Below, piece by piece: positions 2,862 through 55,540 of a stretch of 64,000 bases of DNA. Position 1 is the first letter of the stretch. Every line of letters starts with the position of its first letter. Where the stretch lies: contig JAFQHL010000045.1 of the NCBI GenBank assembly GCA_017397955.1, positions 104,764 to 168,763 on the forward strand. The letters are read 5' to 3'. The notes under the pieces were generated by a model. The model ran no database searches. It saw only the letters and a program-made list of their open reading frames with translations, and was not told the DNA's origin. The position numbers were made by a program, and so were the translations under genes. This DNA is from Clostridia bacterium. GTDB lineage: Bacteria; Bacillota; Clostridia; Oscillospirales; CAG-382.

Positions 2862-2864
2862 GCT

Positions 2865-3995: not shown

Positions 3996-4022
3996 ACTTA
4001 TATAAAATAAGGAGGCTTTACA

Positions 4023-5459: not shown

Positions 5460-5487
5460 AAATCAGTAATTTAAGGAGATACAAAAA

Positions 5488-7908: not shown

Positions 7909-7925
7909 ATCGCAAGAGGTAGTTT

Positions 7926-9806: not shown

Positions 9807-9867
9807 TGTACGCGCATATACTTAAAACACAGGTGTGTAAAAATATTTAAGATAGGTTGGTGTCAAA

Positions 9868-40302: not shown

Positions 40303-40334
40303 AAAAAACATCCTCCTTTCGATTCATTGTTTAT

Positions 40335-40387
40335 ATTATACTCGATTATCGGTTGTTTGTCAATATGTTTGAGAACATTTCAAACAT
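40335..40387 (-). promoter_or_regulatory. abiE promoter with adjacent inverted-repeat operator candidate
   Basis: On the minus strand: TTGACA (40363-40358), 17-nt spacer, TATAAT (40340-40335). Immediately upstream lies ATGTTTGA-N7-TCAAACAT (40365-40387). Confidence 0.7.
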
Positions 40388-40405
40388 AAAATTCTGATAA
40401 AAACT

Positions 40406-40445
40406 AAGCGACCTGCCTTTTACAGCAGATCGCTTGATTTGTTTA
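40406..40445 (-). repeat. 40-bp perfect direct repeat (copy 2), terminator after recombinase gene
   Basis: Identical to 38546-38585; lies 3' of the serine recombinase stop (40497). Confidence 0.85.
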
Positions 40446-40496
40446 ATATTTACTTGATAATAGCGGTATTTTCAATACCTTTGGGCAATACTTAAA

Positions 40497-42389
40497 TTAA
40501 GCGCTCGGTACTTGTCTGACCTCAAAGGGCAGCGTCGGGGGATTATCCTTCATATCCTCCGCGAAGCTCTCGATGATATCCGCTTGGGTTTGAGCAAACT
40601 GTGCGGCTTTCTTCGCCTTTTCCTCCGCGCGTATTCTCTTACGACGGGCAAGCTCCTTGTCTCTGCGTTTGCGGTACAGTTCCTTCCAATACCGATCCTT
40701 CTCCATCTGCTCCAATTCCTCGGGTGTAGGTTCGGGCGCGGGAATACTGATATTGCCGACAAAGTTCAAATAGATCTCGACCTCTTGGATACGCTCTCCT
40801 GTGGAACGGTCGGGGGCGTGAACTACGATCTTGTCGATAAACTCGTTTATCATCGGCTTTGTAAGCTCGGAGAAGTCTGTGTACTTGGCGGCAAGAGACA
40901 GAAAAGCGTCGATGTTAACGCTGTCTTTCTCAAACTGTTCTACCGCATTTTCCGCTTCGGATATGGATATTTTGAGTTCCTTCTGCTCCTGCTCATAGCC
41001 GCTTGAGAGCATATCGAACTTTTCCTCGGATATTTTACCGACAGCGTAGGATTCGTAAAGACGTTTATAGAGAACGTCCAATTCCTCATAGCGCCGCTTG
41101 TCCTTGTTCAGCTTACGCTTTAATTCCTTTGCGGTGTTGTCTTGCTGTACCGCCGACGCTTCACGAACACGGGCAATAAAGTCATCCTTGTTGGCAATGG
41201 CGTATTGGCTGACCGTTCTGACGGTAAATAATACGATCTCTCTTAAAGAATTGGTACTGATATGATGTGCAAAGCATCCCTTGCCCTTATTCTTCTTGGA
41301 TAACTTATAAGTTGAGCAATTATACGCATCCGTTCCCGAATGCTTCGTTCCAATCGAATCCGTAAAAGGACGCGAGCGTTGGTTATACATCTTCTCACCG
41401 CAATCGGCGCAATAGACAAGTCCCGTAAATGGATTGGATTCTTCAATCGTATCACAGCGTCGGGGCGTTCCCAAGAGCTTTTGGCACAACTGCCAAGTTT
41501 CAAGGTCAATGATGGGTTCTTGAGTCCCTTCAAATACTGCCCACTTTTCGGGTGGGTTCTGAATACTTTTCTTATCCTTGTAGGATTTGCTTGTGGTACG
41601 GAAGTTGACAGTATATCCAAGATAGTCGGGCTTGGTCAGTATATGCTTGACCATCGTGCCACTCCACTTATATGGGTCTAACACATCAAGGCGATTCTTA
41701 TATACACCATTACTCCGCTTGGCTTGATAATAGCCGGGTGTTTCGATCTTATCCGCTTGCAGTTGCTTGGCGATCATCTGTATGCCTTTGCCCTCAATGC
41801 AAAGCCGATAGATGCGTCTGACGACCTCTGCCGCTTCTTCATCCACAAGCCAATGATGCTTGTCCTCGGGGTCTTTCTTGTACCCATAGGGCGCGTGAGA
41901 GGAAATATGCTTTCCCGAATTGCCGATGACCTGCTTGGTGGCTCTGATCTTGCGGCTGCAATCTCGCAAGTACCATTCATTCATCACGTTCAAAAAAGGT
42001 GCGAACTCGCTACTTCCTTGATTATCACTATCCACTCCGTTGGCAATGGCGATAAAGTGGATGTCCTTCTGCCCGAAATAGATCTCGGTGTAATAACCGA
42101 CTTCAAGGTAATTACGACCGATACGGCTCATATCCTTCGTGATGACCATACCGACCTTACCTGCTTCAATGTCCTCGATCAGACGTTTCCAATCGGGTCT
42201 GTCGAAGCTGCCGCCGCTGTAACCGTCATCGGTGTAGTGGACGATATTGGTGTAGCCGTTCTGTTCGCAATAGGTTTCGAGCATTTTCTTTTGATTCACG
42301 ATGGAATTGCTATCGCCAAGCTGCTCGTCGTCTCTCGATAGTCTTTCATAAAGGGCAGTAATCAATCCGTCAATCTGCTTGTTGTTCAT
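40497..42389 (-). CDS. large serine recombinase (TnpX-like)
   Basis: N-terminal resolvase domain (ALYERLSRDDEQ...SNSIVNQKKML...GYSGGSFDRPDW...VITKDMSRIGRN), recombinase domain, Cys-rich zinc ribbon (CADCGEKMY...YNCSTY), and a long coiled-coil tail; 630 aa. Confidence 0.92.
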   Translation of the reverse strand: MNNKQIDGLITALYERLSRDDEQLGDSNSIVNQKKMLETYCEQNGYTNIVHYTDDGYSGGSFDRPDWKRLIEDIEAGKVGMVITKDMSRIGRNYLEVGYYTEIYFGQKDIHFIAIANGVDSDNQGSSEFAPFLNVMNEWYLRDCSRKIRATKQVIGNSGKHISSHAPYGYKKDPEDKHHWLVDEEAAEVVRRIYRLCIEGKGIQMIAKQLQADKIETPGYYQAKRSNGVYKNRLDVLDPYKWSGTMVKHILTKPDYLGYTVNFRTTSKSYKDKKSIQNPPEKWAVFEGTQEPIIDLETWQLCQKLLGTPRRCDTIEESNPFTGLVYCADCGEKMYNQRSRPFTDSIGTKHSGTDAYNCSTYKLSKKNKGKGCFAHHISTNSLREIVLFTVRTVSQYAIANKDDFIARVREASAVQQDNTAKELKRKLNKDKRRYEELDVLYKRLYESYAVGKISEEKFDMLSSGYEQEQKELKISISEAENAVEQFEKDSVNIDAFLSLAAKYTDFSELTKPMINEFIDKIVVHAPDRSTGERIQEVEIYLNFVGNISIPAPEPTPEELEQMEKDRYWKELYRKRRDKELARRKRIRAEEKAKKAAQFAQTQADIIESFAEDMKDNPPTLPFEVRQVPSA

Positions 42390-42402
42390 TCTTGAACTCC
42401 TT

Positions 42403-42621
42403 TCAAGCAGGACGGCTCATTTGTGGTGACTCTATTATACCACACTTTTCGCCGTTTGTCGATACCTCATTTTTAATCATTCGTAAAATTTTATCCTCCA
42501 TCGTTTCTTTTGCGGTCTCGCTGAAGAAAACCTTCAGCTTGTAGGTGGTGCTCCCGATGCGGCGGGTGATGACGTTTTCCTTCAAATTGTTATTCTTTTC
42601 GTTCAATAGGCTTTCCTCCAA
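42403..42621 (-). CDS. TnpW-like transposon-encoded small protein
   Basis: RRIGSTTYKLKVFFSETAKETMEDKILRMIKNE is the pattern of TnpW-family proteins; sits directly upstream of the recombinase. Confidence 0.65.
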   Translation of the reverse strand: MEESLLNEKNNNLKENVITRRIGSTTYKLKVFFSETAKETMEDKILRMIKNEVSTNGEKCGIIESPQMSRPA

Positions 42622-43029
42622 AATTCAAATTTAGATTGGTCGCCGATCTGAGCGCGTCTGTCAGCCTCCTTACGCTTCGTTATTTGCGTCTGTGATCGAC
42701 TTATGTAAAGCCCTGCAACCGCATTTGCAGGGGAAATATCCACGTGGACACGATGTCCACTCGGGTTATATAGCGCGTTACGGATAATCTGTCTGTGTGG
42801 TGTGGGTCATTTTGACCCATACCACGCTCTCCGATTAAACGTAACAGCATACTTTTTATGTATCCGTGCGCTGTTCTCCTATCCCATTCTCTGCGACGTA
42901 TTCCGTATTGGCGTGCTCGGTCAAAAGACTGTCTTGGCACACATCGCCTACGGTAATATCCACACGGCGTTATTCGATTTTCAAGGAACGTAAATGTATA
43001 AGGCTAAATTGTGGGGGCAGTGTTCAAGT

Positions 43030-44250
43030 TACCTCTCACTATTTAGTTGGGAACTTTCTCGGCAAAAATTAGCCATCGACCAAGAAATAAATATCCCTCT
43101 AAGTGGTAGGCAGCGAGAATGGCTAAAACCCGCCACAAAATCAAAAAAATATTTTATGACCTCATCTAATAGGACAAAAATACGCGAATTGTATAGTGTC
43201 TGTAAAAATTCCTCTCTATTAGGTAGCCAGCGAAATTGGTAAAAACCCGACACGATTTCAAAATATCCCCCTAAGTAGTAGGCAGCGAAAAGGGCAAAAA
43301 GACAACCATAGCCTCAAAAAACTCTCCTTCACTTGACAACGGACATTTTTTCATTGAAATCGGGGGTAGGTAAACTCACCACTCTCAAATTTTCTCTCCT
43401 ACTATTCGTTGCTGACTTTTTGGGAAAATTTTGCGTGCCTTTCTAATATTCGTTACTGACTTTTTTGCAAAATAATAGCCTGAGAACATCAAAAAAATCC
43501 CCCTCTAAGTGGTAGCCGGCGAAACGACCCAAAAAGGGCAAGATTTTCAGAAAAAATTTTACTCCTCAATAGGTAGGCAGCGAGAACGGCTAAAACCCGA
43601 CATTTCCTCTAATATTTAGTTGGGAACTTTTTTGTCGTTTGAGCCAAACTTTTTTGAAAATAAAAGTCCCTCTAAGTGGTAGCCAGCGAGAAGCCTTGAT
43701 TTTTGCACTTTTGTGTAAATTTGTCCCTCTAATTGGTAGGCAGCGAAATCGCAGAAAAAGGGCAAGATTCTGAAAAAATATTTATCCCCTCAATAGGTAG
43801 CCGGCGAAAACGCGTAAAACCCGCCACTTTTTTCGTTTCTATTTTATTACCGTATCGAAAACGGCAAAATTGTCCTACGAAAACAAGCTCTCAATTGGTA
43901 GCCATCGAAAACCCCAATTTTATACCCCTCACTATTACGTTGCTTACTTTTTTTGAATTTGGCCGAAAATTTTTTCAAAAAAATTGAAGAAAATTTTTGC
44001 TCCCTTAAGTAGTAGGCGATAAGAATGGAGAAAACTCGACACTTCCTCTAATATTTAGTTGGGAACTTTTTTCACGTTTGGACGAAAAATACTTTGAAAA
44101 ATATGTCCCTCTAATTGGTAGGCAGCGAGAAGCCGCGATTTTTGCACTTTTCAGAAAAATTGTCCTCTACTTTTTAGTTGGGAACTTTTTTGAGAAATTT
44201 TGCGTGATACTTACAAATAATTTATCCTTCTAAGTAGTAGGCAGCGAAAA
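43030..44250 (+). repeat. non-coding array of ~20 degenerate 25-29-nt direct repeats (two motif classes) with recurring inter-repeat segments
   Basis: Class A CCCTCTAAGTGGTAGSCAGCGARAA starts at 43095, 43211, 43267, 43499, 43562, 43667, 43724, 43785, 43887, 44001, 44106 and 44225. Class B CCTCTAATATTTAGTTGGGAACTTTTTT starts at 43032, 43394, 43438, 43606, 43925, 44045 and 44164. Mean period is ~60 bp. No credible ORF. Confidence 0.9.
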
Positions 44251-44295
44251 GGGCAAAAATATAAGGCTGTTCGTAAAAAACAGCCTAAAAATTGA

Positions 44296-44330
44296 AAACG
44301 GCGGTGGAATTTTGTTTTCCACCGCCGTTT
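44296..44330 (-). terminator. rho-independent terminator after the 44343-45705 operon
   Basis: AAACGGCGGTGGAA-TTTTGT-TTCCACCGCCGTTT 14-bp stem. A second hairpin AGGCTGTT-N8-AACAGCCT lies at 44264-44287. Confidence 0.8.
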
Positions 44331-44342
44331 AAGGTCATTTAT

Positions 44343-44840
44343 TCAATTTGTTTCCATAACTCTTGCACAAGCCTCGGGTTCATATTTTATGCTTTCAATC
44401 ATTCGCTTGATGTTGTCTCGTTTCATAAAAGCTTCAATCTGATCTCGTTGTTCGTCGTTTTCAACCTCGTGTGTGATTGCTAAAACAAACCCGTTTTGTC
44501 CTTCACTGTTCATCGGATAGCCGAGTCGTTCTTCGTAGTATTCGTAAGACCACCCGCCGTTCCGATAGAAAGAAGCATAACCACTCATTCCATTACGTTC
44601 AACGGGAAAGATATTCCCGACGTTCTCATTTTCATCGTAAGCGAGGATCTGCGCTATTTCTCCATACGGAGATTTATCAAATTCTTCTGCTCCTATATCG
44701 ATCTGAAATCTTCCATCGTAGGTTTCGACTATAATCGTATCGGGGGATACAACGGACGGATCGGAAACAAAACACATATCCTCGGGCAATTCAAACGAAA
44801 AGCTCTGAGTATATAATCTTCCGTTTTTTATGTATAACAT
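44343..44840 (-). CDS. hypothetical protein
   Basis: 165-aa ORF whose start abuts the stop of the sigma-like gene; no family recognised. Confidence 0.5.
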   Translation of the reverse strand: MLYIKNGRLYTQSFSFELPEDMCFVSDPSVVSPDTIIVETYDGRFQIDIGAEEFDKSPYGEIAQILAYDENENVGNIFPVERNGMSGYASFYRNGGWSYEYYEERLGYPMNSEGQNGFVLAITHEVENDEQRDQIEAFMKRDNIKRMIESIKYEPEACARVMETN

Positions 44841-45479
44841 TTATTTTTCTTCCTTCCTGTTCGGTATAAATTTGTTCCAATTCGTATTGGTAATGCCGAG
44901 GTTTTCAAGCTCCACGGCAACCTCTACGATAGACTTTTTTCCCAAGTCCTTGATGCCCATGATCTCGTCCTCGGTAAGTTCAACAATGTCCTTTACCGTC
45001 TCATATCCTTTGGCGATAAGGCGGTTTATCGGTCTTACTGAAATATTCAATTCACTGATTCGACGCTGATACTTATCTTCACTGTAACGCTCTTCCTTTT
45101 CCAGCGCTATTTCTTTACATCTTTCCTCGTAGGTATGCTTACCGTACTTTATGTATCCAATCAACGGGGGATGATGAAGTTTAGAGATAGATCTATGCTC
45201 TAAGGTGCGGATGCGTTCTCCCGTAACGTCAAACTCTTTTGCGATAGCAGTATAGGTCATTTTCCGTGCGTAACGCATTTCGATAACTTTCTGATCGCGC
45301 GGCGGCAACGTAGAGAGCGCATATTCAAGTCCGGCAACCATATCCTCGGTTATATTATCCACGGGAATCTGTACGTTGAACCATTTATCTGTTGCAAGCG
45401 TTAAAAACAGATTGCGTGGGTATGGCTCCTTGTATGCTGCTTTAAGTATATTTTTTGTTTCATTATCCAATGCTTTCAT
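44841..45479 (-). CDS. sigma-70 region-4-like HTH protein with RpoA-CTD-like helix-hairpin-helix tail
   Basis: LPPRDQKVIEMRYARKMTYTAIAKEFDVTGERIRTLEHRSISKL (region 4 HTH), then LNISVRPINRLIAKGYETVKDIVELTEDEIMGIKDLGKKS (alpha-CTD-like). Confidence 0.7.
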   Translation of the reverse strand: MKALDNETKNILKAAYKEPYPRNLFLTLATDKWFNVQIPVDNITEDMVAGLEYALSTLPPRDQKVIEMRYARKMTYTAIAKEFDVTGERIRTLEHRSISKLHHPPLIGYIKYGKHTYEERCKEIALEKEERYSEDKYQRRISELNISVRPINRLIAKGYETVKDIVELTEDEIMGIKDLGKKSIVEVAVELENLGITNTNWNKFIPNRKEEK

Positions 45480-45705
45480 CCTCCTTGATCACTTTTATAC
45501 ATTCCTTGCACAAGCAGTATTTCGACTTGGCAGGGATAACGGCACCACAGCTATGACATACTGTTTGCTTCGGCGTTAAGACGATAGCTCCGTCCTTGAC
45601 CTCCATATCAAGATCGCATTTCGTATCGACACTCAATGCCTTTCTAAATTCTATCGGAAGAACGATCCTTCCAAGCTCATCAATCTTTCTTGTAATTACC
45701 AACAT
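45463..45705 (-). CDS. AbrB/MazE/SpoVT-family DNA-binding protein with C-terminal CxxC pairs
   Basis: ITRKIDELGRIVLPIEFRKAL swapped-hairpin motif; C-terminal CHSCG...CLCKEC. Confidence 0.75.
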   Translation of the reverse strand: MLVITRKIDELGRIVLPIEFRKALSVDTKCDLDMEVKDGAIVLTPKQTVCHSCGAVIPAKSKYCLCKECIKVIKEDESIG

Positions 45706-45816
45706 TTTGTTTCTCCTTCGCCTTCATATTATTTTACCATATTTTTTACCATTTGAAAATGGCATAGCAGTTCAATTTTTGCTGGCTCAGCAGTTCATTG
45801 ATGCTTTTATTCTCGT

Positions 45817-45958
45817 TGTCGAATAATGACGAAGGGTGCTTTGCGTTTCGACATAATATTACCCACCTTTCTATCGTGTTACGATTGCTCTTATCGCTAC
45901 GCTCACATTATAGCATAGGCGTATTGTCGAATTATGTTATAATCTCGTGTCGAAATAA
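45817..45958. promoter_or_regulatory. cluster of four TGTCGAA heptamers (operator candidates) in the regulator intergenic region
   Basis: TGTCGAATAAT at 45817, inverted TTCGACATAAT at 45847, TGTCGAATTAT at 45925, TGTCGAAATAA at 45948. Confidence 0.45.
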
Positions 45959-45982
45959 AAAAATCTGCGATTTCTCGCAGAT
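45955..45982 (-). terminator. terminator after XRE gene
   Basis: On the minus strand, ATCTGCGA-GAAA-TCGCAGAT is followed by TTTTTTT. Confidence 0.75.
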
Positions 45983-46008
45983 TATGTGGATAAGCTATTC
46001 AATTTCGT

Positions 46009-46338
46009 TTATTTTCTTCTTGCCGTTCTCAAAAGAGCATCGAGCACTTCAAAGATTCTTTGCTGTTCTTCAGCAGGAAGTGTTGCGATCTCGTCGGAAA
46101 GGCGAGAGGTGCGGTTCACGTAACCGTTCTTTATGACATCACGGAAAAGGTCGTCAGCCGTAATGTCAAGACAGTCGATGATCTGAACCAACAATTCCAA
46201 CTTGATGTTGTATGCACCGCGCTCCAACGCACTCATATAGTTCGGAGAAATACCGATCATCTCGGCAAGCTTCTCTTGGGGAATCTTTTTCTGTTTGCGA
46301 ATTTCTTTAATTCGGCGTCCGATCTCCTGTTCAATCAT
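46009..46338 (-). CDS. XRE-family HTH transcriptional regulator
   Basis: IGRRIKEIRKQKKIPQEKLAEMIGISPNYMSALERG is a canonical HTH_3. Confidence 0.85.
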   Translation of the reverse strand: MIEQEIGRRIKEIRKQKKIPQEKLAEMIGISPNYMSALERGAYNIKLELLVQIIDCLDITADDLFRDVIKNGYVNRTSRLSDEIATLPAEEQQRIFEVLDALLRTARRK

Positions 46339-46354
46339 AGTTTCACCTCCAATT

Positions 46355-46435
46355 CAATCGGTATAGCATAAGTATAATTGTTTTCCGATTGATTTAGAAG
46401 TAAGGTCTCCGATAGGAGCAATCGGAAACCGATAG
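46355..46435. promoter_or_regulatory. CAATCGG/CCGATWG palindromic motif set upstream of the XRE gene (operator candidates)
   Basis: CAATCGG at 46355-46361 and its complement CCGATTG at 46385-46391; CCGATAG at 46409-46415; CAATCGG-AAA-CCGATAG at 46419-46435. Confidence 0.45.
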
Positions 46436-46555
46436 ACAATGCCGCTTTTCGATTAGAAAATTGAAATTTGTAATGTCCGCTCAGCATTGTCTTGTTGATC
46501 GTCTTTATATTATATCATAAAAATGTTAAACTTTCCACCACGATAAATAGCAAGA

Positions 46556-46586
46556 CGGCGGTGGAAAATGTGTTATTCTCCACCGC
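46556..46586 (-). terminator. terminator hairpin after 46603-47016
   Basis: GGCGGTGGA-N13-TCCACCGCC. The stem sequence is related to the 44296-44330 terminator. Confidence 0.6.
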
Positions 46587-46602
46587 CGCAGCGTTATTGG
46601 CT

Positions 46603-47016
46603 TTATTCAGTTGTATCGTCACCGATAGCCGCCAAAGTGTTTGCGATCAATGTCTCGGTAGAAACGCCGTATTTAACCGCATTTTCATAAGAGCCGTCCA
46701 TCGTAACGATAGAAACCTTAGACTCATCAAGTGCATCCGCAACCGCGTTAAGCTCCGAAGGAGTACCAACCACTCTGTTGGAGGATGCCATTACGATGGT
46801 CTTAGTATCTGTGTTCTTTGCGTACTCAATGGCTTTTTTTAACGCATCGAGGCTTTCCGCACGGCTACCAATTGTGCTGACGGTCTCGCTGACGTCATAG
46901 CCTTGCTGCTTGCAATAGCTTTGAACCTTTTGCACTTGTCTCTCCAAGCACTCTGCCGCGCCGTCGTGATTGCTTTCTCTTACGTAAACAACCACTTGTT
47001 TATTTTCAGAAGTCAT
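46603..47016 (-). CDS. resolvase-N-terminal-domain-only protein (TnpY-like)
   Basis: VVVYVRESNHDG...LERQVQKVQSYCKQQGYDV resembles a serine-recombinase catalytic domain, but there is no DNA-binding domain; 137 aa. Confidence 0.5.
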   Translation of the reverse strand: MTSENKQVVVYVRESNHDGAAECLERQVQKVQSYCKQQGYDVSETVSTIGSRAESLDALKKAIEYAKNTDTKTIVMASSNRVVGTPSELNAVADALDESKVSIVTMDGSYENAVKYGVSTETLIANTLAAIGDDTTE

Positions 47017-47102
47017 AAGACAGCTCCTTTCTCATTGATAAATCGAACGTATTTATTATACCATAAAAATTTGAAAAAATCCAGTTCTTTATCACATTTT
47101 TA

Positions 47103-47384
47103 TTACGAATATATTTGAAACGTATAAACGCTATTCTTTGTCGTGAAGATCAGATAATCTTCGCGGTATTCATACGTTCCGCAGCTTGTTTGAAGATAGC
47201 GTCCGTCTCGGCTTTCGATATACATAAATTTCTCGCCGGGGTGTTTGTGTTCGCTTTCAAACATTCCAAGTATACCTTCCATTCCGACGTATCTCATTCG
47301 CCAAGACCATTCGTTTTCCTCAGCCTCGGTGATGGGAATGATCTCTATGAGCTTGGCGATATATGCGTTTACCTTTTTAGCCAT
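47103..47384 (-). CDS. hypothetical protein
   Basis: 93-aa ORF within the co-oriented element operon. Confidence 0.45.
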   Translation of the reverse strand: MAKKVNAYIAKLIEIIPITEAEENEWSWRMRYVGMEGILGMFESEHKHPGEKFMYIESRDGRYLQTSCGTYEYREDYLIFTTKNSVYTFQIYS

Positions 47385-47396
47385 AGCTTGTCCTCC

Positions 47397-47678
47397 TTAA
47401 AGCGTATCACGATGTTCACCGCTCAACACTTCAAGCATAATCCGAGCGCCGAGCCTAAAGGCGTACGTAAATATCTCTCGCTCGTTGATCTCGGACAGCT
47501 CTGACCAACAATCGTCAAACCTTTGCAGAATGTCCTTCTGCTTTTCGTCAAGGGTTGCGGATAGGTTGTCGTGATGGGTGGCAATGTAGCCGATAAGCTC
47601 CTTTGTTTCCTTCGTGGCGATTCTGCAATCGCTGTTCGGAGAGATATTGCCGTACCATAATTCGTTCAGTACCGTCAT
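47397..47678 (-). CDS. DUF6809-like small protein
   Basis: LNELWYGNISPNSD...FDDCWSELSEINEREIFTYAFRLGARIMLEV is a pattern seen next to TnpV in clostridial elements (from memory). Confidence 0.5.
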   Translation of the reverse strand: MTVLNELWYGNISPNSDCRIATKETKELIGYIATHHDNLSATLDEKQKDILQRFDDCWSELSEINEREIFTYAFRLGARIMLEVLSGEHRDTL

Positions 47679-48025
47679 CTGTAGATCACCTCCCGCAGCA
47701 CAAACTCCTTGGCGCAGGCGCGGACGTTATTCATTTCTTGCACCCAGCGCATTTGATCTGTAGCCTTGAGTTCCTCGGTGATGCCATTCTTTTTGACAAG
47801 TCCCGCAACGATTGATTCCATCTGTGCAACCGCTTGCTCATCAATGCTGTGAAGGTGCTCGTTGAGCCTACCTTCTGCTAAAAGGGTGGTGTAAGTCCCG
47901 CGTCGGTGGTTTTTGAGAAACGCGAGATGCAGGTTGCCGTACTTGCCGATCTTATAGTCGGTCTGTTCGGGCAGTTCAAGCTCGGGGTAAAACTGATCCC
48001 CGATTTGTTTGTAGCGCAGTTCCAT
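47675..48025 (-). CDS. TnpV-like transposon-encoded protein
   Basis: MELRYKQIGDQFYPELELPEQ...IGKYGNLHLAFLKNHRRGTYTTLL..GRLNEHL..IDEQA...KATDQMRWVQEMNNVRACAKEFVLREVIY matches the TnpV family pattern. Confidence 0.8.
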   Translation of the reverse strand: MELRYKQIGDQFYPELELPEQTDYKIGKYGNLHLAFLKNHRRGTYTTLLAEGRLNEHLHSIDEQAVAQMESIVAGLVKKNGITEELKATDQMRWVQEMNNVRACAKEFVLREVIYR

Positions 48026-48556: not shown

Positions 48557-48590
48557 AAAAAATTTCGCCCGCTGTGCGGGCGAAATTTTT
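48557..48590. terminator. bidirectional terminator
   Basis: AAAAAATTTCGCCCGC-TGT-GCGGGCGAAATTTTT between convergent genes. Confidence 0.8.
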
Positions 48591-50889
48591 ACGCTTTTGT
48601 TTTTTCAAGGTCCTTCTTGCGAATTTCCACACGCCTTACCTTGCCGCTGATGGTCTTGGGCAGCTCTTCCACAAACTCCACAATTCTGGGGTATTTGTAG
48701 GGCGCGGTGTGGGTCTTTACATATTCCTGAATTTCCTTCTTCAAGGCATCCGTGCCGACGGTATTCTTGGTAAGCACTATGGTCGCCTTTACAATCTGTC
48801 CGCGTACTTCATCGGGTACGGGGGTGATTGCACATTCCAACACATAAGGAAGCTCCATAATAACGCTTTCAATTTCAAAGGGCCCGATGCGATAGCCGCT
48901 GGACTTGATAACATCGTCGATACGACCCACATACCACAGATATCCGTCTTCGTCCATGGTTGCCTGGTCGCCTGTGTGGTAGAATCCGTCGTGCCATACT
49001 TCGTTTGTTTTTTCTTCATCAAGATAATAGCCAATGAACAATCCGCAGGGTGCGCCGTCCTTGGTGCGGATACAAATCTCGCCCGCATCACCGGTCTTAC
49101 ATTCGTTGCCGTCGGGGTCAAGAATTACCACATCGTACAAAGGACTTGCTTTACCCATAGAGCCAATCTTGGGTGTAGAGCCCACAAAGTTTGCGATGGA
49201 GAGCGTTGTTTCCGTTTGTCCAAAGCCTTCCATAATGGTAAGCCCAGTTGCCTTCTTAAACTGGTTGAACACTTCGGGGTTAAGCGCCTCACCTGCTGTG
49301 GTAGCGTACTGAATAGAGGAGAGGTCGTACTTAGAGAGGTCTTCCTTGATGAAGAATCTATACATCGTGGGCGGTGCACAGAATGTGGTAATACCGTACT
49401 TTTTAAAGAGGGGAAGAATATCGTCGGGATGGAACCTGTCAAAGTCGTAGGTGAAAACACCTGCTTCGCAGAGCCACTGACCGTAGAGCTTGCCCCAAAG
49501 TGCCTTACCCCAGCCTGTATCGGAGATAGTGAAGTGCAAGCCGTCACGCTTAACATTGTGCCAATGCTTGGCGGTGGGGTAGTGACCCAACGCATATTTG
49601 TAGGAATGGGTTGCAATACGGGGGTAACCCGTAGTACCCGATGTAAACAGCATAAGCATGGGGTCGTTACCGCAGGGGGTATCTTCCTTGCGGTAGAAAT
49701 GGGTACTGAAACGCTCCATTTCCACATTAAAGTCGTTCCAGCCGTCTTTTTTGCCGCCCACAAGAATCTTTATCATTTCGGGGAACTCTGCTGCCGCTTT
49801 TTCTGCTTCTTCCGATACAGTGCCGTCTGCTGTACAAACAATGGCCTTTACCTTGGCGGCTTTATACCTATAGGTAAAATCGTGCTCGACAAGCTGGTTA
49901 GTAGCGGGGATGGCAATAGCGCCAATCTTGTGCAGTGCAAGCATACAGAACCAGAACTGATAATGACGCTTGAGCACCAGCATAACCGTATCACCGCGCT
50001 TTATACCAAGGGATTCAAAGTAGTTTGCGGTCTTAGCGGAGTACTTCTTCATATCGCTGAAAGTGAATCTACGCTCGGTTTTATCACCTGCAACCCACAT
50101 CATAGCAAGCTTGTCGGGGGTCTTTTCCGCAATAGCATCAACGCAGTCAAAGGCAAAGTTGAATTTATCCTCGTTTTTGAAGCTTATGCCGTTGAATACG
50201 CCCTGTTCGTCGTAGGTGGATGTAATAAAGTTGTCGGCAACGGTTTTAACCTCGGTTTCTTCCTTAACAGCCTTTGCGGCGATAAAGGGCGCTTCGGGAT
50301 AAGTCTCGCTGTAATCCCCGTCCTGAGGATTAAGTACCACTGCGTGGAACTCACAGCCGCCCTCGCTTACGGCAATCATACCATGAGGGATAATACTGTT
50401 GTAAAAAATAGAGTCGCCTTCGTTAAGTACGCTTATGTGGTTGCCAACCTGTACTTTAAGGGAGCCTTTTACGATAACATCAAATTCTTGTCCGTTGTGG
50501 GAATTAAGCTTAATGGCTTTGTTTTGCTCTTCTTCCATGTAAGGCATTTTAACCAAAAAAGGCTCTGCCAATTTATCCTTGAATTTAGGTGCAAGGTTGT
50601 AATAAACCCCTGCCTGCTTTTTAATTATCTCAAGTCCTTCGCCTTTTCTCGTAATGGCAAAGGAGGTAAGTGTGGTACTTGTACCTTCTATAATATCAAC
50701 AACCTCGACATTACATGCCTTGGCACATTTGTAAATGAATGTAAAGCTAAAATCGGTTTCGCCCTGTTCAAGGAGTTTGTAGTCCTCAACAGATACGCCC
50801 GTAAGCTTTGCCAGCTCTTCTTGGGAATACCCCTTAGCTTCACGCAGGTCTTTAATTCTACCTGCAACATCTTTCAAATTGAACTCCAT
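48589..50889 (-). CDS. tripartite fusion: XRE-type HTH + cupin + AMP-forming acyl-adenylate/acyl-CoA ligase
   Basis: Residues 1-65 form an HTH_3 (IKDLREAKGYSQEELAKLTGVSVEDYKLLEQG). Residues ~110-190 form a cupin (GQEFDVIVKGSLKVQVG...GDSIFYNSIIPHG). The rest is an ANL-superfamily ligase (LMLFTSGTTGYPRIA, GYYHTGD, SSGYRIGPFEIE, PKTISGKVRR). Confidence 0.85.
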   Translation of the reverse strand: MEFNLKDVAGRIKDLREAKGYSQEELAKLTGVSVEDYKLLEQGETDFSFTFIYKCAKACNVEVVDIIEGTSTTLTSFAITRKGEGLEIIKKQAGVYYNLAPKFKDKLAEPFLVKMPYMEEEQNKAIKLNSHNGQEFDVIVKGSLKVQVGNHISVLNEGDSIFYNSIIPHGMIAVSEGGCEFHAVVLNPQDGDYSETYPEAPFIAAKAVKEETEVKTVADNFITSTYDEQGVFNGISFKNEDKFNFAFDCVDAIAEKTPDKLAMMWVAGDKTERRFTFSDMKKYSAKTANYFESLGIKRGDTVMLVLKRHYQFWFCMLALHKIGAIAIPATNQLVEHDFTYRYKAAKVKAIVCTADGTVSEEAEKAAAEFPEMIKILVGGKKDGWNDFNVEMERFSTHFYRKEDTPCGNDPMLMLFTSGTTGYPRIATHSYKYALGHYPTAKHWHNVKRDGLHFTISDTGWGKALWGKLYGQWLCEAGVFTYDFDRFHPDDILPLFKKYGITTFCAPPTMYRFFIKEDLSKYDLSSIQYATTAGEALNPEVFNQFKKATGLTIMEGFGQTETTLSIANFVGSTPKIGSMGKASPLYDVVILDPDGNECKTGDAGEICIRTKDGAPCGLFIGYYLDEEKTNEVWHDGFYHTGDQATMDEDGYLWYVGRIDDVIKSSGYRIGPFEIESVIMELPYVLECAITPVPDEVRGQIVKATIVLTKNTVGTDALKKEIQEYVKTHTAPYKYPRIVEFVEELPKTISGKVRRVEIRKKDLEKTKA

Positions 50890-50947
50890 AGTTTTTTGCT
50901 CCTTTCGTTTCCGCTTGCTTCGTTATGAAGCATAAATTTTCGGATTT

Positions 50948-51290
50948 GAATAAAACAAAACAGACCCATCTCAAATATACTTTGAGACGGGTGCAATTAT
51001 ACATATAAAATCACACTCGCGGTACCACTCAAATTGCGGACAAATAATCCGCCACTTTGCAGGCTCTAACAAGCCCTTGCTTTAACGCAGCATTACGGAA
51101 GAAGCCTACTGACCGCTTGGGTGTTCAGCCCTCCAACTCGGAAGTGATGGGTCATTGGAAAACTCTGCCATTGGCTCGCAGCAACCGCCAACTCTCTTAA
51201 GGCTCGGTAATCCGACCGTCTTCGTCATAGTTGTTTGTGATATTCAAATTTCTTGTTATGCATTATACTCGCGCAAAAACTGTTTGTCAA
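50948..51290 (-). promoter_or_regulatory. promoter plus T-box leader (tRNA-sensing riboswitch); specifier unresolved (Pro/Thr/His registers)
   Basis: All on the minus strand. Promoter: TTGACA (51290-51285), 17 nt, TATAAT (51267-51262). Stem I has GA-motif, AGAGAG and GCTGCGAG elements; an F-box-like GCGTTA is present. The T-box sequence AATTTGAGTGGTACCGCG lies at 51035-51018. The terminator ACCCGTCTCAAA/TTTGAGATGGGT (50992-50964) is followed by a U-tract. Confidence 0.85.
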
Positions 51291-51321: not shown

Positions 51322-53781
51322 TTATTTCTTAAGCCCCAAAATTTCGGCAGAGTCATCACGCATTTTGTATTTAAGAATCTTGCCCGCCGCATTCATGGGG
51401 AACTCGTCCACAAACAGGAAATAACGGGGAACCTTGTGGCGTGCTATGTAAGCGTTGCCAAACTCTTTCATCTCCGCTTCCGTTGCAGTCTCTCCCTTGT
51501 GCAATATTATCCATGCACAGCATTCCTCCCCGTACTTTTCGTCGGGAACGCCAACCACCTGTACATCGCGCACCTTGGGGTTGGTAAGATAAAACTCTTC
51601 TATCTCGCGAGGGTACAGATTTTCACCGCCGCGGATAATCATATCTTTAAGACGCCCCGTTACCTTGTAGTATCCGTCGGGTGTGCGACAACATATATCG
51701 CCGCTGTGCAACCAGCCGTCCGCATCTATAGCCTGTGCGGTAGCCTCCGGCATCTTATAGTAACCCTTCATAATATTAAAGCCGCGGGCTACAAATTCGC
51801 CACTCTCGCCGTCGGGTAACTCTTCTCCTGTTTCAGGGTCGATAACCTTACACTCCACACCGGGGAAAGGACTGCCTACGGTTTCCACACGGTGGTCAAG
51901 GTCTTCGTTAACCTCACCCATGGTACAGCCTGGGGACGCTTCTGTCTGCCCGTAAACGGAGATAATCTCTCGCATATTCATTTCGTCTGCGGCGCGGCGC
52001 ATAAGGTCGGCAGGGCAGTTTGCACCTGCCATAATGCCCGTACGCATATAGGAAAAATCCGTCTTTGCAAAATCGGGGTGGTTAAACATGGCAATAAACA
52101 TAGTAGGTACGCCGTTAAAGCAGGTTATATGCTCGTCATTAACGCAAGCCAAGGACGACTTAGGTGAAAAATAGGGGATAGGGCAAAGTGTGCCGCCGTG
52201 TGTCATCATGGAGGTCATGGAAAGCACCATGCCAAAGCAGTGGAACATTGGCACCTGTATCATCATACGGTCGGCAGTGGAAAGGTCCATCCTGTCGCCT
52301 ATGGTCTTGCCGTTGTTTACAATATTGCGGTGGGTGAGCATAACCCCTTTGGGGAAACCTGTTGTGCCGGAGGTGTACTGCATATTACAAACGTCGTCGG
52401 GTTTAACAAGGGATGCGCGCCTGCGTACCTCCTCCACAGGAACAAGGGAGGAGCGGGAAAGCATTTGTTCCCAAGTAAGACAGCCTTCCATGGAAAAACC
52501 TACGGTAACAACGTTACGCAGGAAGGGTAAAGCCTTAGAGTAAAGGGGCTTACCGGGTGTAAGACTTTCAAGCTCCGGACAAAGCTGCTTAATAATCTCC
52601 TTATAGTTGATGTCCTTGCAGTACTCAATCATCACAAGTGTATGAGTGTCTGACTGCTTTAACAAATACTCTATCTCGTGTATCTTATAAGCAGTGTTAA
52701 CAGTTACCAGAACAGCACCGATTTTAGTGGTTGCCCAGAAAGTAATAAACCATTCGGGCACGTTGGTTGCCCATACCGCCACATGGTCGCCCGCCTTCAC
52801 GCCCAAGGAAATAAGGGCGGCGGCACATTCGTCAACATCGCGGCGGAACTGCTTATAGGTTCTGGTATAGTCAAGGGTAGGGTACTTAAAGGCGTACTGG
52901 TCCGGGTAGGTTTCAGCCATAGTGTCAAGTACGTCACCAAAAGTAGCATCAATAACGTCGTATTTCTTCCACACAAAGGTGCCAGTTTTTGCCCTGTTGT
53001 AATAAGCGCGGTCGTAATTCTTCTTTTTGCGGCCAAGGGATGAAACGTAGTTTGCAAAATGGGTAAGCACTATATCCGCATCGTTTATTTCCTCGTTCCA
53101 AGCGGCACAAATAAAGCCGTCAAAATTAAGGGAGGAGAGGGCATTGATAAGCTTTTCTACGGGCAGTTCGCCTTCGCCTATAAGTACTGTCTTCCCGTCC
53201 TTCATATCGCCCAACCGTACATACTTGATATACGCACCCAGCGTTTTAATGGTGGTTTCAGCCGTCTCTCCTTCGCCGAAATATGTGCCTCTCACATTCC
53301 ATGAAGCACCTATTACCGCAGATGAGAAGAAGTTTATAATATCTATAACATTTTCCGTATTTGCCAAGTAGCCTACAGTCTCAAAGAGGATACCCACATC
53401 AGCGGATTCAGCACGCTTTATGGCCTTGCTCAGCTTTTCCTTCAGCAATTCGTAGGGCGCTTCCTCCTCTATACGAACGATGATGTTTTCAATTCCTGCG
53501 CTTGCCGCCATATCCACATATTTAAGTACTGCATCGGCAGTTGCATCCTCGCTGTCCAAGGGATGAGGATAGCTCAATGCGGAAACAGCAAGCCCGCGGT
53601 TTACAAGCTTTCTTTTGGAGTCCGCCGTACGGTCGCGGCGCAGAATACTGTCGTGGTGGGTGCTGCGCTCGTTTATTGCATCGTAAATCTCAAAGCCCGC
53701 AAATCCGTAGTCATAAGCATAACGGCAAAGCTCTATAAAGGAGGGACGATTTACGTACTTTGTAGAAAAAACAATTTTCAT
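51322..53781 (-). CDS. fusion: xylose-isomerase-like TIM-barrel domain + AMP-forming fatty-acyl-CoA ligase
   Basis: The N-terminal ~260 aa look like a sugar-phosphate isomerase/epimerase-type TIM barrel (FAGFEIYD..., ILFETVG..., VRLGD). The C-terminal ~550 aa form an ANL ligase (MQYTSGTTGFPKGVMLTH, GWLHSGD, IRGGENLYPREIE, PMNAAGKILK). The start is set at MKIVFS (53781), 1 nt after the upstream stop and preceded by GAGGAGGAG. Confidence 0.85.
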   Translation of the reverse strand: MKIVFSTKYVNRPSFIELCRYAYDYGFAGFEIYDAINERSTHHDSILRRDRTADSKRKLVNRGLAVSALSYPHPLDSEDATADAVLKYVDMAASAGIENIIVRIEEEAPYELLKEKLSKAIKRAESADVGILFETVGYLANTENVIDIINFFSSAVIGASWNVRGTYFGEGETAETTIKTLGAYIKYVRLGDMKDGKTVLIGEGELPVEKLINALSSLNFDGFICAAWNEEINDADIVLTHFANYVSSLGRKKKNYDRAYYNRAKTGTFVWKKYDVIDATFGDVLDTMAETYPDQYAFKYPTLDYTRTYKQFRRDVDECAAALISLGVKAGDHVAVWATNVPEWFITFWATTKIGAVLVTVNTAYKIHEIEYLLKQSDTHTLVMIEYCKDINYKEIIKQLCPELESLTPGKPLYSKALPFLRNVVTVGFSMEGCLTWEQMLSRSSLVPVEEVRRRASLVKPDDVCNMQYTSGTTGFPKGVMLTHRNIVNNGKTIGDRMDLSTADRMMIQVPMFHCFGMVLSMTSMMTHGGTLCPIPYFSPKSSLACVNDEHITCFNGVPTMFIAMFNHPDFAKTDFSYMRTGIMAGANCPADLMRRAADEMNMREIISVYGQTEASPGCTMGEVNEDLDHRVETVGSPFPGVECKVIDPETGEELPDGESGEFVARGFNIMKGYYKMPEATAQAIDADGWLHSGDICCRTPDGYYKVTGRLKDMIIRGGENLYPREIEEFYLTNPKVRDVQVVGVPDEKYGEECCAWIILHKGETATEAEMKEFGNAYIARHKVPRYFLFVDEFPMNAAGKILKYKMRDDSAEILGLKK

Positions 53782-53782
53782 A

Positions 53783-55171
53783 TTACTCCTCCTCAAACAC
53801 AATCTTGTTCAGGGCGTTGATATATGCTCTTATACTTGCCGCAACAATATCTGCTGAAATACCGTTGCCTGAATAAAGCTTGCCGTTGTTTCTGAGCCTT
53901 ACCAAAGCAGAGCCCAAAGCCTCTTTGCCTTCGGTTACGGATTGCACCTGAAAATCGTCCAGCTCATAGTGATAACCTATGCACTGCTCAATGGCACGGA
54001 AGGCAGAGTCAATAGGACCGTCCCCTGTGCTTACACCGCAAATAATGTCGTCGTTGAATCTTAGTGTTACCTGTGACATAGAGCTTGTAAGGTTACTGCT
54101 GTTTGTGGTGTAGCTTTCAAGGTGATAGGTAGAGGGCGCCTGCATAGCGGCGCTTGCAATAAGCGCGTCAAGCTCCTTTGCGCCTACGGCATCCTTCTTT
54201 TGACATACCTGTATAAGCGCCTTGTGCACTTTGCCGCAATCGGCCTCGGAAAGGTCGTAACCCAAAACACTTGCCGCCTGCGCTACTTGTGCAATGGTAC
54301 TGTCACAGTCAAGCAAAATCTTTTTCTTTTCGCTTACGGTGCTTTCGCTTTCGTAAACCTCGTGGTTTATTTTTGCAAGCATATCGTCAATACTAGCATG
54401 TATTTTTGTATTATTAAGCCCTGTTCCTATACCCAGTCGGTCAGAACAAACTTTAAGGGCATCTGCAATCTCACCCGTCAAAAGAGCATCGCCGCCCGCC
54501 ATAGAGCATTTAACACCGTCTGCGCCGTTGGCAACAGCGGCTATTGCAGAAGCTACCGCCATATTTATCTTATCGGAAACCTGCACGTATACGGGCACGT
54601 TTACAGCCGCTTTTACCGCTTGGGTCAGCGCGACAATCTCTTCTGGCAGAGATATTCCTGCATCATCACACAGTGTAATAAGGGTTGCGCCGTTAGCTAC
54701 CGCTTCTTTGGCTGCATTAACTACAAAGTCTGCTTCTGCGCGTGTAGCATCAAGGGCAGAAAACTCAACGTCCTCAGTAAGCCCTTTTGCAGCCTTTACA
54801 AGCTCTGCAATCTTTGCCAACATTTTGTCCGCCTTAATGTGGTAATTGTACTCCATTTGAACGGTAGAAACAGGAAGCTCTATCTGTAAACGGGGGCTTT
54901 TTGCCGATTTAATGCACTCCCATGCATCAACTACAGAGGCAACCGTAGAGCCTACGGGGATGGCAACCGTGGCGTTTTGCACATTCTGCGCTACAGTTTT
55001 ATATACAATGGAATCCTCACGCAGACTCTTAATGGGTGCAAGCTCCACGCTGTCGGCGCCGATAAGGTCGGCACAAACGGCAATAGCGGTTTTTTCGCGG
55101 AAAAGCAGGGCAACCTGGCGGTCTGCGGAAAGCTTTTTAAGTGTAATGTCGGATACATTGATTTTTCTCAT
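53783..55171 (-). CDS. LeuA/HMGL-like protein with degenerate catalytic motifs and retained LeuA C-terminal regulatory (dimerisation) domain
   Basis: Colinear by eye with 2-isopropylmalate synthase, but DTTLRDGEQ is replaced by SDITLKKLSADRQ and HxHNDxGxAxAN by VQVSDKINMAVAS. The C-terminal TGDGPIDSAFRAIE...VTEGKEALG...GISADIVAASIRAYINALNK resembles the LeuA_dimer domain. Confidence 0.65.
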   Translation of the reverse strand: MRKINVSDITLKKLSADRQVALLFREKTAIAVCADLIGADSVELAPIKSLREDSIVYKTVAQNVQNATVAIPVGSTVASVVDAWECIKSAKSPRLQIELPVSTVQMEYNYHIKADKMLAKIAELVKAAKGLTEDVEFSALDATRAEADFVVNAAKEAVANGATLITLCDDAGISLPEEIVALTQAVKAAVNVPVYVQVSDKINMAVASAIAAVANGADGVKCSMAGGDALLTGEIADALKVCSDRLGIGTGLNNTKIHASIDDMLAKINHEVYESESTVSEKKKILLDCDSTIAQVAQAASVLGYDLSEADCGKVHKALIQVCQKKDAVGAKELDALIASAAMQAPSTYHLESYTTNSSNLTSSMSQVTLRFNDDIICGVSTGDGPIDSAFRAIEQCIGYHYELDDFQVQSVTEGKEALGSALVRLRNNGKLYSGNGISADIVAASIRAYINALNKIVFEEE

Positions 55172-55214
55172 TTTCTAAAACCCTTTCACAAATAAAATTG
55201 GTGCCTTGGAATAT

Positions 55215-55540
55215 CAACAAAAAAACGTCCCCGTCCCCTTGTCGAATCAAAGAGACGAAAACGTTAAACACAATTTAACTTTCCGCGGTACCACTCTTCT
55301 TCATCCAGTAAAGGATGCACTCAGATGCCAACACATCTTTACTCTGTAACGGGAGCTACCCGTCTGTCATTACACCTAAAACAGGTTCACAACAGCCGCT
55401 CCGCGGTGAGTTCAGCAAGCTTTTCCCAATGTCTCACACCGACCGACATCTCTCTCAAGGCGAAAACACCTGCGTACTATTCCGCATCACTGCGTTTACT
55501 AATTGCTTGGAATTTTATCACAAGAAAATTTCTTTGTCAA
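55215..55540 (-). promoter_or_regulatory. promoter plus T-box leader, specifier CUC (leucine)
   Basis: All on the minus strand. Promoter: TTGACA (55540-55535), 17 nt, TAAAAT (55517-55512). Stem I has GATGCGGAAT-AGTA, AGAGAG and GGTGTGAG. The specifier loop is GAA-CTC-A (55413-55407), and CCGTTA is the F-box. The T-box sequence GAGTGGTACCGCGG lies around 55284-55297. A terminator (55265-55224) is followed by a U-tract. Confidence 0.88.

Follow-up and report, generated by a model that had tools for sequence, protein, structure and literature searches.

A putative isoleucine-responsive T-box switch in front of an HTH-cupin-ligase fusion gene of a gut Clostridia bacterium

Which amino acid is sensed by a T-box leader that controls an acyl-adenylate-forming ligase, and what does such a ligase do with a helix-turn-helix (HTH) domain at its N-terminus? 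Both questions are raised by one gene of a Clostridia bacterium (assembly GCA_017397955.1), located in a stretch of 64,000 nucleotides of contig JAFQHL010000045.1 that we will call the window. The gene codes for a protein of 766 amino acids that joins an XRE-type HTH, a cupin and a complete ANL ligase, and all the features of this unit are on the minus strand (Table 1). A first-pass annotation of the DNA could not assign the amino acid and proposed that the protein might combine enzyme and repressor, like the biotin ligase BirA. The analysis described here indicates that this monocistronic unit is probably an isoleucine-starvation T-box switch acting on a ligase that activates 2-methylbutyrate for isoleucine synthesis.

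The unit starts at a sigma-70 promoter identical to the consensus at all 12 positions, confirming the independent promoter already claimed in the first-pass annotation, and both boxes are kept across 69 aligned orthologous promoter regions. The leader that follows matches the T-box covariance model RF00230 along its full length (model positions 1-219, 92.7 bits, E 4.4e-21) and ends in a 12-bp terminator hairpin, so that the presence of a second, independent T-box, with its T-box sequence and terminator, was also correctly recognized. The core T-box motif is TGGTACCGCG in 76 of 77 orthologous leaders and TGGTACCACG in the other one (L032), while the complete T-box sequence is identical in the 45 leaders displayed in the alignment. 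Its UGGU bulge is complementary to the tRNA 3' end ACCA, which predicts a discriminator A73. The 3' strand of the antiterminator (CCCGUCUCA) doubles as the 5' arm of the terminator, making the two structures mutually exclusive, and the GAAAGGA of the ribosome-binding site is kept among the orthologues. All this supports induction by amino-acid starvation, as had been proposed.

The covariance-model alignment also fixes the position of the specifier. Stem I contains the expected K-turn (UGA.../...CGA), the sequence GACCC-AUC-A at the 3' side of the specifier loop, AGAGAG and GGCGGUUGCUGCGAGCC, and the loop is followed by a helix strand CUUC that pairs with GAAG beside the K-turn. In the 78 orthologous leaders available (the window plus 77 genome loci) the triplet ATC is invariant. 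The three bases at its 5' side vary (CCC, CTT, CCT and others), and at its 3' side most leaders have an A, the others a C or G. RNAalifold found compensatory changes in 14 of 23 pairs of these 78 Stem I sequences, and the helix directly below the specifier loop changes from GAAG/CUUC to GAGG/CCUC in 11 of them. Read in this alignment, the specifier codon is AUC, and the amino acid predicted to be sensed is isoleucine. This fits the UGGU bulge because the bulge predicts A73, and A73 is carried by bacterial tRNA-Ile.

Other readings of the codon were discarded. The first-pass annotation had located the specifier in GGCT-GAACACCCAAG-CGGT, but in the covariance-model alignment this stretch belongs to Stem II, and among orthologues it is hypervariable in both sequence and length. 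The codons CAC, CCC, CCA or ACC inside GAACACCCAAG are therefore ruled out, and the puzzle of choosing among His, Pro and Thr came from reading the wrong loop. The doubt that had been expressed about a His specifier was nevertheless right, since UGGU predicts A73. An extra insertion of ~35 nt in Stem I compared with the Leu T-box located upstream is not seen either, both Stems I being ~102 nt long in the model alignments. Moving the register of AUC by -1 yields the non-conserved CAU/UAU. A shift of +1 gives UCN (Ser) in the window leader and UAG in the homologous leaders of the Val-type paralogues described below; serine tRNAs carry G73, not A73.

The specifier can also be compared with the gene that it precedes. 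We searched 88 loci with our own Stem I covariance model; 80 of these loci came from a scan of metagenomes with the Val-type protein. The register was kept constant by taking as specifier the triplet that is followed by one base and then by the lower helix. In the 112 leaders that were found, the specifier sorts with the downstream gene with zero exceptions. It is ATC before the fusions that we call a-type (27/27), before the window-type fusions (2/2) and before pairs in which HTH-cupin and ligase are separate genes (4/4), whereas it is GTA or GTC before the b-type, or Val-type, fusions (62/62) and CTC before LeuA-like genes (4/4). The codon register is fixed by the b-type leaders, because a +1 shift there reads the stop codon UAG. 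Furthermore, some loci contain two tandem fusion paralogues, each with its own T-box, the first with AUC and the second with GUA or GUC. Ile-type and Val-type genes are found in tandem at 29 of 48 loci.

The product is, by homology, an AMP-forming short/medium-chain acyl-CoA ligase of the MacsMa/MbcS type. Four Pfam domains (HTH_3, Cupin_2, AMP-binding and AMP-binding_C) are found in one uninterrupted open reading frame, and an identical protein is present on 5 other contigs, so the fusion stands and is not the result of a frameshift or assembly error. In the ligase part, AMP-binding scores 197.4 bits and AMP-binding_C 76.5 bits, and the ANL core motifs FTSGTTGYPR, GFGQTET, GRIDDVIKSSG and LPKTISGK are present. 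Residues 239-761 align with the Methanosarcina acetivorans enzyme MacsMa (PDB 3ETC) at 56% identity over 528 columns (679 bits). MacsMa prefers 2-methylbutyrate, has an alternative pocket tryptophan, Trp259, and carries Gly in place of the pocket tryptophan of Acs (PMC10455477). Both features are retained here, W443 aligning with the tryptophan of the MacsMa AKYW motif (Trp259) and G557 with Acs Trp414. The best NCBIfam model is MbcS (NF047394, 450.5 bits), an enzyme with selectivity for 2-methylbutyrate and isobutyrate that uses isovalerate poorly (PMC10026030).

We then aligned 82 window-type, 35 a-type and 85 b-type proteins and looked for positions conserved within groups, common to both Ile groups and different in the Val group. 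Only three of the 766 positions separate Ile-type from Val-type proteins: K54R, K106R and G461A. G461 is the only one within the ligase, with Gly in the Ile-type proteins (as in MacsMa) and Ala in the Val-type, and is a candidate determinant of the selectivity for C5 versus C4 acids. It aligns with Val310 of Salmonella enterica Acs, a residue that reportedly lines the acyl pocket (Gulick 2003; Ingram-Smith 2006). Gly for a C5 acid and Ala for a C4 acid would fit a pocket-size rule, although this is suggestive only.

The metabolic context comes from the Val-type paralogue. This gene is followed, on one strand and with gaps mostly of -1 to 62 nt, by genes for a CbiA-like protein, a ferredoxin, the alpha, beta and gamma subunits of a 2-oxoacid:ferredoxin oxidoreductase of the VOR type, and IlvE, an arrangement present in 27 of the 49 loci with enough downstream sequence. 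The domains POR_N/PFOR_II, TPP_enzyme_C and POR-gamma together with the ferredoxin correspond to a four-subunit VOR, IlvE is an Aminotran_4 gene, and one locus (L090) has a glutamate dehydrogenase gene in addition. Since the reaction of an AMP-forming ligase goes one way, from the acid to its CoA ester, and the operon would be induced by valine starvation, its predicted direction is isobutyrate to isobutyryl-CoA, 2-oxoisovalerate and valine. In the rumen, isobutyrate is a valine precursor and 2-methylbutyrate an isoleucine precursor (PMC7356843).

By the same logic, transcription of the window gene from its consensus promoter would normally stop at the leader terminator. Under isoleucine starvation, and by analogy with the T-box family for the dependence on tRNA, uncharged tRNA-Ile would pair with the AUC specifier and its ACCA end with the UGGU bulge, the antiterminator would form and the gene would be read. 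The ligase would then convert, most likely, 2-methylbutyrate, ATP and coenzyme A (CoA) to 2-methylbutyryl-CoA. A VOR-type enzyme would reductively carboxylate this ester to 2-oxo-3-methylvalerate, to be transaminated to isoleucine by IlvE. The proposed substrate and pathway draw on homology, on the correlation between specifier and paralogue and on the operon context in relatives.

Several observations weigh against this reading. The score of the leader is 0.3 bit under the Rfam gathering score of 93 bits, and for this reason the scan of the whole window gave only the Leu T-box; the leaders of split pairs and tandem paralogues score from 66.6 to 117.1 bits against the same model. The AGUA half of the S-turn is missing from the specifier loop, the corresponding model positions being deleted (GACG----GU), and neither the window nor 60 related loci contain a tRNA-Ile gene with which anticodon and A73 could be compared. 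The ligase is under the MbcS equivalog cut-off (450 versus 850 bits), which makes it a relative of MbcS and not an equivalog. There is no VOR or ilvE gene within the window, and in the 80 orthologous genome loci no VOR was found by the Ile-type gene and an IlvE-like gene only in L066. The neighbourhoods of the window-type gene are not conserved across these 80 loci, and the pathway for the window gene thus rests on homology and specifier logic. In addition, the synthesis of anteiso fatty acids is primed by 2-methylbutyryl-CoA as well, and isoleucine may therefore not be the only fate of the CoA ester.

The search for the same architecture in other genomes, suggested in the first-pass annotation, gave abundant relatives, and where orthologous leaders could be aligned the AUC was always present. 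More than 8000 database proteins match the fusion, the best 120 listed being all full-length fusions (86-91% identity) with an unchanged set of domains. Relatives are encoded in at least 516 species-representative genomes. The best 80, again all full-length fusions, are carried by metagenome-assembled genomes from ruminant hindgut and faeces classified as Acutalibacteraceae, Oscillospiraceae and unclassified Clostridia. A search of the N-terminal 240 residues against 1.84 billion cluster representatives retrieved further clusters of full-length fusions (37-49% identity) and many stand-alone HTH-cupin proteins of ~190 residues. Of six stand-alone genes that were examined, five are followed, after 4-125 nt, by a gene for an AMP-forming ligase of 547-553 residues, and carriers of these split pairs include cultured Oscillospiraceae (Hydrogenoanaerobacterium saccharovorans, Ligaoa zhengdingensis and Zongyangia hominis). 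A T-box with the AUC specifier stands before four of the split pairs. The fusion is thus the joined form of a two-gene operon that is conserved. One split pair with a gap of 5 nt (L094, 4001..6251) has no detectable T-box in the 263-nt upstream region, indicating that the pair can exist without T-box control.

The HTH-cupin module has the HTH_3 plus Cupin_2 architecture of XRE-cupin proteins, and its residues H131, E135 and H169 do not vary among 68 members, whether fused or stand-alone. An AlphaFold2 model (68 sequences, pLDDT 84.5) predicts five helices and a cupin barrel, for which the best Foldseek matches in the PDB were HppE, then 1Y9Q, a "regulator" from structural genomics, then HEPD and MPnS. 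Enzymes and regulators thus share this two-domain fold, and in HppE, HEPD and MPnS the HTH-like plus cupin pair is not known to bind DNA. The first 72 residues of the protein of the window have a net charge of -5, and each of the 150 best family representatives is net acidic too (-2 to -12). XRE proteins contact bases with the beginning of helix 3, and at this place a x-E-E/D-Y is conserved (V33, E34, D35 and Y37 here). No conserved palindrome was found in the 69 aligned promoter regions. DNA binding by the module is thus unsupported as judged from its sequence, and so is the BirA-like logic suggested in the first-pass annotation. Most likely the module acts on the enzyme, by ligand or metal sensing, oligomerisation or feedback. 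We favour this role because module and ligase are always produced together, be it as a fusion or with the gene of the module just upstream of that of the ligase, although it is the weakest step of the argument and one that we only infer. Outside the ligase, K54R and K106R are the only differences separating Ile- from Val-type proteins, and this near absence of specific positions argues that the cupin does not discriminate between the two amino acids or acids.

Close to the promoter there is another conserved element. Right after the -10 box, a conserved AUUUGAAUAucACAAA is complementary to UUUGUuuUAUUCAAAU, located over the U-tract of the terminator, and the pair would enclose the whole T-box. 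This long-range helix is predicted in the minimum free energy fold of the leader. The 3' core in 70 orthologues showed 19 A>G changes, all of them giving G.U pairs, versus 2 A>T changes. L039 and L046 have an A-U to U-A swap in the helix, and L061 has a different yet complementary pair, ACAAUUGA/UCAAUUGU. Both halves are missing in five loci. The HTH sequence is unchanged in L061 and in those five loci, so there is no co-variation of the element with the HTH. We considered the TTTGAATA pair as an operator of the HTH and rejected this as the principal interpretation, given its RNA-helix behaviour and the lack of co-variation. These substitution patterns suggest an RNA helix that closes read-through transcripts, perhaps with a role in processing or stability. 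No similar 5'/3' closing helix was found in the Leu T-box or in other clades.

The leaders have other structural particularities. A specifier loop without AGUA is common to the whole leader group (sites 51211..51230 and 51145..51153, minus strand). In the RNAalifold consensus, a GG at the 5' side pairs with the CC or CU just 5' of the codon (20 G.U variants). This leaves a small internal loop (2 x 5) and makes Stem I of these leaders a structural variant. The leader of the window also has an AT-rich insertion of ~17 nt (GUGAUUUUAUAUGUAUAAUU, ~50996..51013, minus strand) between the T-box sequence and the terminator, not present in the orthologous leaders displayed in the alignment.

The presence of an HTH next to an adenylating enzyme can be explained in other ways. 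A BirA-like bifunctional protein would bind an operator through its HTH-cupin part and repress its own or other genes, with the acyl-adenylate, the acyl-CoA or a cupin ligand as co-repressor or inducer, adding a second control on top of the T-box. Both HTH_3 (42.8 bits) and Cupin_2 (34.9 bits) are above the Pfam cut-offs, and the module is 34-50% identical to stand-alone XRE-cupin proteins of ~185 residues and is similar to 1Y9Q, which is annotated as a regulator of transcription. In Pseudomonas, metabolic operons are locally repressed by XRE-cupin proteins (PMC7901475), and the conserved element just downstream of the -10 box could be a repressor site. However, the acidic charge and the Glu/Asp on helix 3 hold in 150 of 150 representatives, the promoters lack a conserved palindrome, and the element at the start site pairs with its copy past the terminator, tolerating only G.U-compatible changes (19 A>G versus 2 A>T). 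The compensatory pair of L061 and the loss of both halves in five loci are accompanied by the same HTH sequence throughout. Enzymes such as HppE, HEPD and MPnS use the same two-domain fold, and the module is itself under T-box control and fused or translationally coupled to the enzyme. We consider such a repressor unlikely. The cupin could, on the other hand, be a second catalytic domain, an HppE-like 2-His-1-Glu metalloenzyme acting on the acid, the acyl-adenylate or the CoA ester in a two-step enzyme. The invariance of H131, E135 and H169 in 68 members would agree with this, as would their H-x3-E...H spacing, which resembles that of the iron ligands of HppE, and the fact that HppE structures were the best Foldseek matches (E 2e-11). 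The identity to HppE is only 18-23%, however, with TM-scores of ~0.35, and Glu135 and the PHG His169 have counterparts in the annotated regulator 1Y9Q (His131 being outside the aligned stretch). HppE-type chemistry uses peroxide or oxygen while the hosts are strict gut anaerobes, and the reductive-carboxylation route needs no added chemistry. This makes a catalytic cupin very improbable.

The destination of the CoA ester is a different matter. When isoleucine, from which this primer normally derives, is scarce, 2-methylbutyryl-CoA might mainly prime anteiso fatty-acid synthesis, in a salvage of lipid primers like that of MbcS. The best-scoring curated family of the ligase is precisely MbcS, which in Staphylococcus aureus feeds 2-methylbutyrate and isobutyrate to FabH (PMC10026030, PMC11167679). 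Isoleucine starvation would presumably deplete the anteiso primers too, and the Ile-type gene of the window clade is unlinked to VOR or ilvE. Against it, surveys have found T-boxes in control of tRNA ligases and of the synthesis and transport of amino acids (PMC2494555, PMC3766115), and the Val-type paralogue is co-transcribed with VOR and IlvE (in L090 also with glutamate dehydrogenase), which fits only amino-acid synthesis under valine starvation. The tandem of Ile-type and Val-type genes at 29 of 48 loci argues in the same direction. We regard lipid-primer salvage as improbable, and isoleucine synthesis from 2-methylbutyrate as the probable function of the window gene. More tentatively, and with rather less than even confidence, we put forward a broader picture in which the acidic HTH-cupin would be a new regulatory partner of ANL ligases, sensing a metal or ligand at H131/E135/H169 and gating or assembling the ligase rather than binding DNA. 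It would act inside a previously undescribed three-armed regulon of gut Clostridia, with Ile-, Val- and Leu-specific T-boxes each switching on its own branched-acid ligase, all feeding a shared VOR and IlvE.

The third arm is suggested by the operon next to the fusion gene, in which the Leu T-box heads a LeuA-like gene and a ligase fused to a TIM barrel (TIM::ANL). These two genes are upstream of the window-type gene in only 22-24 of 80 loci. They recur by the Ile/Val ligase-VOR-IlvE cluster in L087, L092, L115, L129, L132, L143, L146, L173, L175 and L176. Speculatively, the TIM::ANL operon may be the leucine/isovalerate arm of the same system.

Regarding other neighbours, the CbiA/ParA-like protein (221 residues) of the Val-type operon is always encoded between the ligase and the 4Fe-4S ferredoxin (68 residues), and one guess is that it participates in Fe-S delivery. 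Recurrent but non-universal neighbours of the window-type gene in L003-L082 were a PaaK-like ligase with an ACT-pair protein (12 loci), a protein that joins ACT and a metallo-beta-lactamase fold (12 loci, in 8 of which it follows the window-type gene immediately and on the same strand) and SSF symporters (7 loci). Downstream of the fusion, a mobile-element block (~39535..48025) contains TnpV, TnpW, a small resolvase, MazE, sigma-70 r4, AbiEii and a large serine recombinase of 630 residues (40497..42389). Synteny with the other loci ends at this block, which is probably an integrated element. Finally, a glycogen cluster (branching enzyme, GlgC/D, GlgA, phosphorylase and amylase) and a dockerin-bearing protein are found at 196..10968 and 16507..18432 of the window, consistent with a fibre-associated gut anaerobe of the Oscillospiraceae type.

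Table 1 Features of the fusion unit, its neighbour operon and related loci (positions in the window unless a locus is given)
Feature	Position	Strand	Remarks
Sigma-70 promoter TTGACA-17-TATAAT	51262..51290	-	-35 51290..51285, -10 51267..51262; 12/12 consensus match
5' half of long-range complementarity AUUUGAAUAUCACAAA	51234..51249	-	begins 13 nt past the -10 box
T-box leader (RF00230)	50980..51237	-	Stem I, Stem II, IIA/B region, Stem III, antiterminator
3' side of specifier loop GACCC-AUC-A	51145..51153	-	predicted codon AUC 51148..51146, next purine A 51145; covariance-model register
GAACACCCAAG	51116..51126	-	Stem II apical loop, GAA...AGUA S-turn region; RF00230 model positions 113-125
T-box sequence AATTTGAGTGGTACCGCG / AAUUUGAGUGGUACCGCG	51018..51035	-	UGGU bulge 51027..51024
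Intrinsic terminator	50951..50992	-	12-bp hairpin 50992..50964 plus U-tract
3' half of long-range complementarity UUUGUUUUAUUCAAAU	50944..50959	-	overlaps the terminator U-tract
Ribosome-binding site GAAAGGAG	50899..50906	-	9 nt before the ATG at 50889
Coding sequence of the fusion, 766 aa	48589..50889	-	HTH-like aa 1-70, cupin aa ~75-190, linker, ligase aa ~216-766
HTH-cupin module	50320..50889	-	Pfam HTH_3 (aa 12-64), Cupin_2 (aa 125-184); H131, E135, H169 invariant
Ligase part, aa 216-766	48592..50244	-	Pfam AMP-binding (252-622), AMP-binding_C (672-750)
G461, motif DTGW-G-K	49507..49509	-	Gly in Ile-type (as MacsMa), Ala in Val-type; sole separating ligase position
Bidirectional terminator hairpin	48558..48590		at the 3' end of the coding sequence; 15-bp stem, T-runs on both sides
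Leu T-box (CUC)	55248..55499	-	125 bits; heads the LeuA-like + TIM::ANL operon, 51322..55499
LeuA-like gene	53783..55171	-	462 aa, divergent, under all LeuA equivalog cut-offs
TIM-barrel::ANL ligase	51322..53802	-	xylose-isomerase-like TIM barrel, 819-826 aa, PRK12583-like
Val-type operon examples	L090 7305..11675; L092 7296..10570		also 27 metagenome loci

It has been known since the 1960s that cellulolytic and other Clostridia of the gut and rumen need branched-chain volatile fatty acids, which they carboxylate into valine, isoleucine and leucine. To our knowledge, the activating enzymes of this carboxylation and their regulation have been poorly defined at the gene level. The locus and its relatives provide a concrete set of genes, Ile- and Val-specific Macs-type ligases, a four-subunit VOR and IlvE, in which the T-box specifier works as a built-in functional label that, if our reading is true, annotates the substrate of each ligase. 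They would extend the known T-box regulon to acyl-CoA ligases and expose a widespread uncharacterised family of HTH-cupin::ligase proteins, with thousands of members in hundreds of species, whose "DNA-binding" domain probably does something else. The cultured carriers of the split form (Hydrogenoanaerobacterium, Ligaoa and Zongyangia) make experiments feasible. In the literature searched we found no paper linking a T-box to an acyl-CoA ligase or a VOR, and nothing on HTH-cupin::ligase fusions. Each of the parts (T-box, Macs ligase, XRE-cupin fold) is known. What is new, as far as that literature shows, is their combination: branched-acid ligases placed under amino-acid-specific T-boxes, their link to VOR and IlvE, and a widespread acidic HTH-cupin partner.

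Among known systems, the leader shares with the T-boxes of the ileS and ilv genes of Firmicutes the K-turn, specifier loop, AG bulge, distal loop, Stems II and III, the 14-nt T-box with its UGGN bulge, the competing terminator and antiterminator, and AUC, the usual specifier of ileS leaders. It differs in lacking the AGUA half of the S-turn, in the 5'/3' closing helix added in the window clade and, above all, in the gene controlled, an acyl-CoA ligase instead of a tRNA ligase, a canonical ilv gene or a transporter. The ligase resembles MacsMa over its whole length (56% identity), including the Trp259/W443 equivalence and the Gly at the position of Acs Trp414 (G557), but MacsMa is archaeal, has no HTH-cupin module as far as the 3ETC chain shows and has no riboswitch associated. 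MbcS of S. aureus (NF047394) is the best-scoring curated family, and its selectivity mirrors the Ile/Val pair of paralogues, with a different type of ligase by the Leu T-box. It feeds lipid primers, however, is not fused to an HTH-cupin, has no reported T-box and is separated from the ligase described here by the scores already mentioned (450 versus 850).

The XRE-cupin factors PuuR, ErfA, PsdR and DbuR, and the structure 1Y9Q, have the same two Pfam domains in the same order as the module, which is 30-40% identical to members of ~185 residues. Here the module is fused to an enzyme, or is the first gene of an operon with one, its HTH is acidic with Glu/Asp conserved on helix 3, and an operator was not found in the promoter regions aligned. 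BirA also unites a fold of the DNA-binding type with an adenylate-forming enzyme in a single polypeptide, but the folds are unrelated, since BirA consists of a winged helix and a domain like that of class II aminoacyl-tRNA synthetases. The closest physiological parallel is the carboxylation of branched-chain acids in the rumen, with the same predicted chemistry (isobutyrate to valine, 2-methylbutyrate to isoleucine and isovalerate to leucine) and a similar habitat, given the ruminant hindgut and faecal origin of the genomes found here. That pathway was reportedly defined by Allison and co-workers in the 1960s-70s by labelling and not by genes, while what we propose here is a candidate gene set for it, together with an amino-acid-specific control by RNA.

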